Positions 11,915 to 16,125 of a DNA stretch of 16,125 nt are shown in pieces; positions within the stretch are counted from its first letter, which is position 1; each line of letters begins with the position of its first letter. The stretch is from Fidelibacterota bacterium. GTDB taxonomy: Bacteria > Fidelibacterota > UBA2242. The DNA lies in NCBI GenBank assembly GCA_049975265.1, contig JBNGDF010000013.1, positions 26,831-42,955 of the forward strand. The letters are read 5' to 3'. Both the position numbers and the translations under genes were made by a program. The notes beneath the pieces are model-generated. The model was not told the origin of the DNA and did not search any database. It was given only the letters and a program-made list of their open reading frames with translations.

Positions 11915-12439
11915 CTAATCTAAATACAGATAGGGTCGCCATTCTTCCAGAGGTGCACTCAGGAAGCGCTGCAGCGTATGCAGCTTATGCGGTCGCTTTG
12001 GTTTTGATCGCAACGTCATTCCGGTCAGTTCCAGCAGTCGGTCACCTTTTTTATTATTACATCGAATGCACGCCGCCACCAGGTTTTCCCAGGTATCCTG
12101 ACCACCCATCACCTTCGGGATAACATGATCGATGGTCAGCGGTACGTTGGTTGCACCGCAATACTGACAGGTGTAATTATCACGCCTCAGAATATTGGCT
12201 TTGTTTAAGACCGCATACCAGTTACGCACCCGCACATAATGATTGATCCGAATAATCGTGGGCACCGGAAACTCACTGCTGGCAGAATAGATCACCAAGT
12301 GTTGGACATTTTTGACCAAGCTGGCTTTCTTTTCAATCAACAACACAATCGCCCGCTTTACGTCGCAGATATGCAGCGGTTCGTAAGTCTGGTTTAACAC
12401 CAGTACCGAGCGATTAATTATGGCGCCATTTCCTGTCAT
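11915..12439 (-). CDS. HNH endonuclease (McrA/HNH_5-like)
   Basis: 174 aa. N-terminal VLVLNQTYEPL, RRDNYTCQYCG, TIDHVIPKVMGGQDTWENLVAACIRCNNKKG, WRPYL. Overlaps the murE stop codon by 4 nt (ATGA). Confidence 0.92.
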   Translation of the reverse strand: MTGNGAIINRSVLVLNQTYEPLHICDVKRAIVLLIEKKASLVKNVQHLVIYSASSEFPVPTIIRINHYVRVRNWYAVLNKANILRRDNYTCQYCGATNVPLTIDHVIPKVMGGQDTWENLVAACIRCNNKKGDRLLELTGMTLRSKPKRPHKLHTLQRFLSAPLEEWRPYLYLD

Positions 12440-15915: not shown

Positions 15916-15978
<63 letters not shown>

Positions 15979-15988
<10 letters not shown>

Positions 15989-16125
15989 CAAATCCAAAAC
16001 AAATCTGCGCACCAAGCAGGAGAGCGTCACGATGCAATCGGGAAGGTCGTCGGTTTCCCGATACTCGGGATCCAGCTCCACAAATCCAAAACAAATCTGC
16101 GCACCAAGCAGGAGAGCGTCACGAT
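15979..16125 (+). repeat. 92-bp-period tandem repeat downstream of tRNA-Ala, truncated at the window end
   Basis: 15979-16033 is identical to 16071-16125 (55 bp). AGGTCGTCGGTT occurs at 15959-15970 and 16044-16055. GGAGAGCG occurs at 15934, 16019 and 16111. Confidence 0.95.
16019..16080 (+). pseudogene. tRNA-Ala-derived remnant (D-loop to discriminator) with substituted anticodon arm and T-loop
   Basis: Colinear blocks GGAGAGCG, AGGTCGTCGGTT and TCCAGCTCCA are identical to the upstream tRNA. The 5' acceptor strand is absent and the intervening segments are replaced by hairpins. Confidence 0.8.

Follow-up and report, generated by a model that had tools for sequence, protein, structure and literature searches.

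Segments of tRNA genes in a Fidelibacterota bacterium, in its relatives and in other phyla have been exchanged for short hairpins at fixed junctions, and the stretches lost in this way have complementary ends. The hairpin is associated with one clade of very small GIY-YIG nucleases, whose genes lie beside tRNA genes on the same strand. The exchange is real and widespread and apparently unpublished, and the hairpin-nuclease cassette is apparently an undescribed kind of selfish DNA.

The locus lies at the end of the window, the whole analyzed stretch of 16,125 nucleotides, where an intact tRNA-Ala(GGC) gene is followed by a tandem array of 92-bp units:

15916..15989, + strand: intact tRNA-Ala(GGC) gene, template of the copies (ARAGORN; Rfam RF00005, 62.5 bits)
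15942..15958, + strand: anticodon arm, tRNA nt 27-43, exchanged for hairpin 1 in the copies (from the sequence)
15971..15978, + strand: tRNA nt 56-63, 8 nt with 2-bp complementary ends; hairpin 2 takes its place in the copies
15979..16070, + strand: full 92-bp repeat unit, consisting of tRNA nt 64-74, spacer, nt 19-26, hairpin 1, nt 44-55 and hairpin 2
15990..16018, + strand: 29-nt spacer; relatives have a GIY-YIG gene at the corresponding place
16019..16026, + strand: copied tRNA nt 19-26 (from the sequence)
16027..16043, no strand: hairpin 1, replacing nt 27-43; 7-bp stem with one mismatch, 3-nt loop (DNA fold -2.8 kcal/mol)
16044..16055, + strand: copied tRNA nt 44-55
16056..16070, no strand: hairpin 2, replacing nt 56-63; perfect 6-bp stem, 3-nt loop (DNA fold -5.0 kcal/mol)
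16071..16125, + strand: beginning of the second unit up to the window edge, matching bases 1-55 of the first unit exactly (nt 64-74, spacer, nt 19-26 and the initial part of hairpin 1)

The preliminary description had read the first copy of this array as a swap of two tRNA pieces for related palindromes between unchanged tRNA blocks, and its coordinates proved exact: nt 27-43 (15942-15958) give way to the 17-nt hairpin at 16027-16043, whose one mismatch is A-G, nt 56-63 (15971-15978) give way to the perfect hairpin at 16056-16070, and nt 19-26, 44-55 and 64-74 are identical to the gene. Its statement that both hairpins stand at tRNA stem-loop positions was correct for the anticodon arm but not for nt 56-63, a piece of 8 nt, distinct from the T stem-loop, whose ends pair over 2 bp and which has no fold by itself. 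The array enters a 100-N gap at the window end, beyond which lies one more unit with a decayed second hairpin. The hairpin-bearing unit is present on contigs from three public runs of two studies, and since these runs are independent it is not an assembly artefact. Read depth on the unit was ~4-8 times that of the flank in the three runs (contigs only, with depth summed over organisms). An Rfam search with the hairpin copy gave no family, and no GIY-YIG gene was found on the window's own contig, which has no PF01541 match. At locus L051, the tandem unit combines a full-length tRNA-Ala, in which the hairpin stands instead of the anticodon arm, and an 84-aa GIY-YIG gene behind it; because the spacer of the window occupies the place of that gene, we infer that the window locus is a gene-less derivative of a tRNA-Ala cassette, likely amplified recently. 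Such a derivative would be served in trans, if at all, by nuclease genes at tRNA-Pro or tRNA-Asn.

Across the whole source genome (G000), the motif TCCCGA-N2-8-TCGGGA occurs in 16 exact copies against 4.76 expected (3.4-fold, P 4e-5), an enrichment that ranks third among 2261 occurring hexamer palindromes and is not significant after correction for that many tests. The genome-wide over-representation anticipated earlier was found in this modest form only, and the bare motif count is weak taken alone; placement and junction recurrence carry the case. Eleven of the 16 copies, each site having been read, lie within tRNA- or RNase P-derived DNA: Ala, Pro (three), a second Pro 5' fragment, Asn (two, on overlapping contig ends and probably one locus), fMet, the variable arm of an intact tRNA-SeC, and RNase P RNA (two). 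The other five, in coding DNA, correspond to the chance level. The expected mapping onto tRNA fragments was thus confirmed, the motif recurring in other tRNA fragments of the genome and of the phylum. In G000, hairpins of several types interrupt partial copies at no fewer than 12 tRNA loci, and the TCCCGA hairpin is borne by partial copies of tRNA-Pro, tRNA-Asn and fMet.

At the tRNA-Ala(GGC) locus of 22 parsed relatives, read by eye, 13 had a hairpin copy, either intact or decayed, on the 5' or 3' flank, seven had none and two were cut by contig ends. The comparison of filled and empty sites that had been proposed therefore found both states, the sites of G004 and G011 being filled. The anticodon-arm junction pattern, defined as the hairpin flanked by tRNA bases, four at one end and three at the opposite end, was detected in 38 of 301 genomes of the phylum, against one for the reversed control. 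Among 30 such loci that were read, 22 had an ARAGORN tRNA and eight had tRNA-type flanks by eye, the types being Ala, Ile, Asp, Val, Arg, Thr and Pro, so that the anticodon-arm swap occurs at seven or more tRNA types across the phylum. The 27-43 junction was also seen at other loci of Ala, Pro, Val, Ile, Asp, Arg and Met, as well as Thr by eye, and the same junctions occur in other phyla. A GIY-YIG gene was present in nine of the 30 loci, all nine at a tRNA-Ala gene or its hairpin copy. At the tRNA-Ala locus of G008 (L038), the hairpin copy is like the tRNA-Ala allele of other genomes and unlike the adjacent intact gene, suggesting that the event is old or that the tRNA gene has been replaced; its hairpin 1 has the same mismatch as that of the window. 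Hairpin-bearing copies can also inflate tRNA counts. ARAGORN calls such a copy at L470 tRNA-Tyr(ATA), and a tRNA-Leu call in G000 (C1:39700-39789) looks spurious.

The replacing hairpin is 15-21 nt long, with the form TCCCG...CGGGA, and is known in 86 distinct versions whose seventh stem pair covaries (66/82 versus 32 shuffled). When hairpins were mapped onto tRNA coordinates, the TCCCGA class was found to replace 6-17 nt, whereas other hairpin classes insert without loss, mostly at 56/57, 57/58 and 35/36. The replaced stretches are 13-18, 23-33, 25-34, 27-43, 36-46, 38-47, 38-49, 50-57, 50-64, 56-63, 57-64 and 58-63, most of them not cloverleaf arms, and at least 11 junction classes have unlike flanks drawn from the local tRNA. 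Complementary ends were observed in 12 of 12 non-arm classes against 3.4 expected, these classes having been hand-picked from 53 mapped rows with the omission of anticodon arms, intact Ser/SeC/Val/Pro self-matches, zero-length and other-class inserts, and duplicate library matches. Sliding the junctions of these 12 classes by 1-3 nt reduced the summed pairing from 28 to 1-7, and the base pair immediately outside the junction was non-Watson-Crick in 11 of them. A fixed-rule count, using own tRNAs only and the worst case per class, gave complementary ends in 21 of 22 junction classes among 242 earlier loci (null 6.15), the single miss being Asn 38-47, which has unpaired ends in the locus's own tRNA and had been dropped from the hand-picked set. 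The same count gave 8 of 9 classes among 78 new metagenome loci (null 2.44), a figure that includes one hairpin copy miscalled by ARAGORN and one class of 2 bp whose boundary is ambiguous, and that is not independent because the metagenome classes mostly repeat earlier junctions. Without the 27-43 arm, the counts were 12/13 for the earlier loci and 6/6 for the metagenome loci. Several replaced pieces pair by only 1-2 bp and have no fold alone. Since the first removed bases vary between classes, a rule of structure fits better than a rule of sequence. Judged from the sequences, the removal pattern points to cutting at the foot of DNA stem-loops, and the complementary-ends rule strengthens the reading of these events as swaps.

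Small GIY-YIG genes start at most ~20 bases past the 3' end of tRNA-Pro, tRNA-Asn, tRNA-Ser(TGA) and tRNA-Ser(GCT) in G000, and one follows tmRNA. The dedicated enzyme encoded elsewhere, as supposed in the preliminary description, consequently has candidates right behind tRNA-Pro and tRNA-Asn, which may write the hairpins. The cassette behind tmRNA (L001, C10:44450-44900) has its own repeat, and related cassettes of relatives form one clade with it. A tRNA-Ser(GCT)/Ser(TGA) cassette region is found on both C6:1-2300 and C30:26700-29542, probably through assembly overlap at repeats. A GTDB scan gave 75 homolog loci in Bacteroidota, Ignavibacteriota, Cloacimonadota, Calditrichota, Patescibacteria and others; among the 74 with a long match, a tRNA lay within 500 nt on the same strand in 52 and on the opposite strand in none, while seven had a split fragment only and 15 had neither. 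Viral contigs contributed three loci only, outside the hairpin-associated clade and with no tRNA near, the phage collection gave 19 phage records only, each with less than 60% identity, and the plasmid collection gave only distant matches, also below 60%. The proteins are 80-85 aa long (PF01541 matches), typically ~82 aa, and end ~15 aa past the GIY-YIG domain, with no separate DNA-binding domain. Residues Y6, Y17, R27, H31 and E63 are invariant, Y6, Y17 and E63 being present in 14/14. The predicted fold is a bare GIY-YIG domain (model pLDDT 85.6), for which the top 13 Foldseek matches were UPF0213, Slx1 and HIGLE, with E < 0.001 only for the first, and none of five G000 GIY-YIG proteins matched an NCBIfam family above cut-off.

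The hairpin also follows nuclease relationships. A quick tree of 165 proteins and 89 columns, from a set to which 60 stretches around family matches had been added, placed 44 of 47 hairpin-labelled rows in a single clade of 68 rows (SH-aLRT 82, or 89 when one row is removed), and the hairpin label changed 20 times on the tree versus 38.4 when shuffled; kin share labels. The search query had been built from the hairpin-associated clade itself. Counted without tRNA mapping, the hairpin lies within 300 nt of 52 of the 68 clade rows versus 9 of the 97 others, in agreement with the link to GIY-YIG genes that had been suggested at the outset. The TCCCGA hairpin is associated with this one, weakly supported, clade. 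Sixteen of the 68 rows have no TCCCGW hairpin nearby, some of them having a TCCCGC form; other hairpin types occur in other nuclease clades, and subclades follow tRNA type. Wherever another hairpin type comes with a labelled nuclease, it occupies a clade of its own. These other types are found as clean insertions at the G000 loci of tRNA-Val(TAC), Ser(GCT), Ser(GGA), fMet, Ser(CGA), Ser(TGA), Leu(TAA), Gln and Met, and comprise double or triple CCCGC hairpins at 57/58, 22-nt double mini-hairpins at 56/57 and 35/36, and hybrids. Members of a further GIY-YIG clade (L211, L227, L231, L232, L239 and L183) are located at a distance from tRNAs and have an inverted repeat at their two ends; the surrounding DNA looks like protein-coding sequence that has been duplicated, an arrangement reminiscent of a minimal insertion sequence. 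Two observations in G000 concern other elements. A second palindrome, AACCTT-C(G/C/T)G-AAGGTT, is the most enriched hairpin of the genome, with 24 matches versus 0.86 expected; it is often paired ~52 bp apart, is not near the Y1 transposase, and occurs on contigs C2, C4, C10, C11, C12, C38, C41, C42 and C44. The window also encodes, at 11915-12439 on the - strand, a 174-aa HNH protein between murE and trpS, whose HNH part matches IscB and Cas9d models far below cut-off.

Hairpins of the same type are found in working RNAs. In 11 of 26 genomes of the source genome's family, intact tRNA-Ser has the TCCCGA hairpin as its variable arm; the hairpin is also present on other tRNA-Ser backbones in other families, relatives having unrelated arms at that place. 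A search outside the family that was conditioned on the family-type flank found the arm in 0 of 125, yet G052, G157 and G026 have it. In RNase P RNA, 17 of 20 family genomes have between one and four peripheral helices made of the hairpin, the corresponding counts being 1/7, 0/5, 0/3 and 0/2 for families f7, f8, f12 and f15, respectively; P3 was left out because its conserved flank fixes its ends. Across families, no clean association between the RNase P hairpin and nuclease presence was observed (5 of 58 loci were not parsed). Two of three genomes in family f9, as well as G037 and G029, have such helices and no nuclease match, and the motif may thus in part be native to the RNA. As far as the sequences tell, hairpins in working RNAs fit tolerated overwriting, with native origin as the alternative. 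In G004, G008, G015, G018 and G051, P19 of RNase P RNA has a TCCGGCA...TGCCGGA variant, which also replaces tRNA-Asn nt 25-34 beside a separate small nuclease clade (L169 and L204), hinting at repeated overwriting of one helix.

Comparable arrangements are known from mobile DNA. Fungal mitochondrial double-hairpin elements are small GC-rich hairpins in variable RNA regions of an organelle, and GIY-YIG mobile ORFs that duplicate part of their host gene place the nuclease ORF, which encodes a larger enzyme, between the intact gene and a displaced fragment. The cassettes resemble these in their GC-rich hairpins and in a nuclease ORF amid an intact gene and a gene fragment. Ssn nucleases with NTS/SRM hairpin repeats (cd10448; Chenal et al. 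2025, PMC11893778) are, in the available text of that source, likewise single-domain GIY-YIG proteins (80-95 aa) flanked by a cognate short hairpin, with different enzymes paired with different hairpins; catalytic positions are shared, Y6, Y17 and E63 here being the positions that SsnA needs (Y6, Y17 and E64), and 80-85 aa lies below the ~150 aa limit for single-domain members. A further trait of Ssn enzymes is sequence-specific cleavage of single-stranded DNA adjacent to their hairpin. However, the hairpin described here is not an SRM, as G000 has 15 or 11 SRM matches under two motif readings, of which none overlaps the TCCCGA hairpins and none lies in the array. Two SRM-flanked proxies for cd10448 showed ~33% identity and a branch length of 1.64 and were nested with weak support, and their NPxW tail was present in 0 of the 165 proteins. 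The hairpin also differs in replacing host sequence in tRNA genes and in its low copy number, and the word 'tRNA' is absent from the main text of PMC11893778 as available.

SegB, a free-standing GIY-YIG homing endonuclease of T4/T6 (PMC2330249), is similar in that its gene adjoins tRNA genes, is aimed at tRNA sequence and is linked to tandem amplification of tRNA segments, according to the accessible parts of PMC2330249 and PMC13096335; a free-standing gene beside a tRNA is likewise the arrangement at 52 of the 74 GTDB loci. In those sources, however, SegB comes from phages and cleaves double-stranded DNA at a site of 27 bp, with no described companion hairpin, whereas the proteins here are bare catalytic domains on bacterial chromosomes: they lack the separate DNA-binding domain expected of such an enzyme (PMC11893778, in part), and they are not phage-encoded, the three viral-contig loci falling outside the clade. 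The nearest solved sequences and, by the predicted model, folds are those of UPF0213 proteins and Slx1 (PDB 1zg2, 1ywl, 6seh and 4xlg), consistent with a UPF0213/Slx1-type GIY-YIG fold in Foldseek. Slx1 cuts branched DNA (5' flaps and Holliday junctions) near the junction (PMC8287910, in part), and the position of the junctions at the foot of complementary ends would be indirect evidence for similar branch-point cleavage. On the other hand, Slx1 is a repair enzyme that requires Slx4 and has no mobile hairpin, and no tie of UPF0213 proteins to tRNA appeared among the present results. REP/RAYT systems share short GC-rich palindromes with variable loops beside a small enzyme gene (PMC3733652; see also PMC2817692), but their HUH transposase, GTAG or CGTC tails and high intergenic copy number are not features of the TCCCGA hairpin, which has 16 exact copies, 11 of them in structured-RNA DNA. 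The term 'REP-like' used in the preliminary description holds as a resemblance only, since the one Y1 transposase of G000 has other flanks. No description of a tRNA-hairpin-nuclease cassette was found in the open literature of PMC and bioRxiv.

The most likely reading, with a probability of roughly 55%, is that the nuclease nicks the feet of tRNA stem-loops in single-stranded DNA, that host repair inserts the cognate hairpin, that only events which duplicate sequence or affect a dispensable helix survive, and that the hairpins then drive amplification and spread. The nuclease would act on tRNA DNA that is transiently single-stranded, in a transcription bubble or on the lagging strand, cutting the gene at the base of a stem-loop, after which repair by the host would fill in the nuclease's own hairpin instead of the stem-loop removed. 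Such a swap would kill the tRNA, so survivors would be those in which repair also duplicated part of the gene or in which the arm was dispensable. The hairpins could then serve as binding or cutting sites that trigger tandem amplification, and could allow the cassette of nuclease and tRNA to enter the tRNA genes of other cells by recombination. It counts against this route that a hydrolytic nuclease alone cannot finish a swap and that the cassette has no ligase or integrase. A bolder version, which is tentative and would need to be held with more doubt than belief, takes the 82-residue nuclease for a find-and-replace system for DNA stem-loops that also covers the overwritten RNA helices and the insertions of sister clades. 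It would read the structure and not the sequence of its target, excise any small stem-loop in full, its outermost paired bases included, and have its own 16-nt hairpin go in instead. Dispensable helices, such as the variable arms of tRNA-Ser and tRNA-SeC and P19 and other peripheral helices of RNase P, would be overwritten repeatedly, parts of essential RNAs would be fossils of mobile hairpins, and sister clades would act alike with other hairpins as clean insertions. If true, this would be a mode of mobility without transposase, integrase or reverse transcriptase.

Among other explanations, a SegB-like homing nuclease that cuts intact duplex tRNA genes is unlikely, although it is the most probable of them. 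The hairpins would then be resistance marks of few origins, perhaps descended from variable arms native to tRNA-Ser/SeC or from helices of RNase P, spread by microhomology gene conversion. SegB is reported to cut a tRNA T-loop motif and to home (PMC2330249, in part) and to amplify tRNA segments (PMC13096335, in part), the flanks of the 27-43 arm are common to many tRNAs, the presence of the motif in the tRNA-Ser arms of 11/26 family genomes and in RNase P helices would supply a source, and the copy in G008 resembles an allele other than its own intact tRNA. Gene conversion, however, predicts no complementary ends of the lost stretch, and at least 11 junction classes have unlike flanks that come from the local tRNA. 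The gene would moreover adjoin an intact target, the 80-85 aa protein has no DNA-binding domain, and viral contigs have only the three matches outside the clade and without tRNA. Still less probable is that the hairpin copies are transcribed functional RNAs, acting as tRNA decoys or as an RNA partner that restrains the nuclease in a domesticated defence or toxin-antitoxin module. Covariation of the stem, the location of the nuclease on the tRNA strand in all 52 cases with a near tRNA, the full-length hairpin-tRNAs of L051 and L470 and a layout kept across phyla would suit such a role; but the hairpins occur at many unrelated positions (D, anticodon, variable and T arms), the copies are 5' or 3' fragments, often decayed and variable in number, with frequent loss or truncation of the gene, and SsnA, the nearest tested analogue, binds no RNA according to PMC11893778. 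The stretch was present in no RNA run, three of which showed shares of 0.04-0.06, and this counts neither for nor against such a role.

Very improbable is spread of the hairpin as a REP by an HUH (RAYT/IS200) transposase, with the GIY-YIG genes as bystanders at tRNA integration sites. HUH enzymes do act on single-stranded DNA hairpins (PMC11893778, in part) and G000 has one Y1 transposase, but this sole gene is flanked by different repeats without the TCCCGA hairpin, on which ground the route was rejected; the low copy number (16) and the tracking of GIY-YIG clades by hairpin types also speak against it. Decay by chance after a tandem duplication of the tRNA, or an artefact of assembly, has a negligible probability. 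The N gap inside the array and the merely 3.4-fold enrichment of the bare motif could be cited for it, but it is refuted by the recurrence of identical junctions in 38/301 genomes and in other phyla, and by the independent public runs, in line with the earlier argument that the array is not random decay.

The partnership recently found in Ssn/SRM, in which a minimal GIY-YIG nuclease has a hairpin of its own, is hereby extended to a second lineage, located in tRNA genes of several phyla. How such hairpins spread is posed as an open question in PMC11893778, and the junctions mapped here offer a direct test of it, since they specify exactly where short oligonucleotides should be cut. If the swap is enzyme-driven, it would represent a very small sequence-replacement tool and a source of structured-RNA variation. 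The finding also accounts for tRNA fragments, tandem arrays and assembly gaps at the tRNA genes of uncultured bacteria, and for occasional false tRNA calls.
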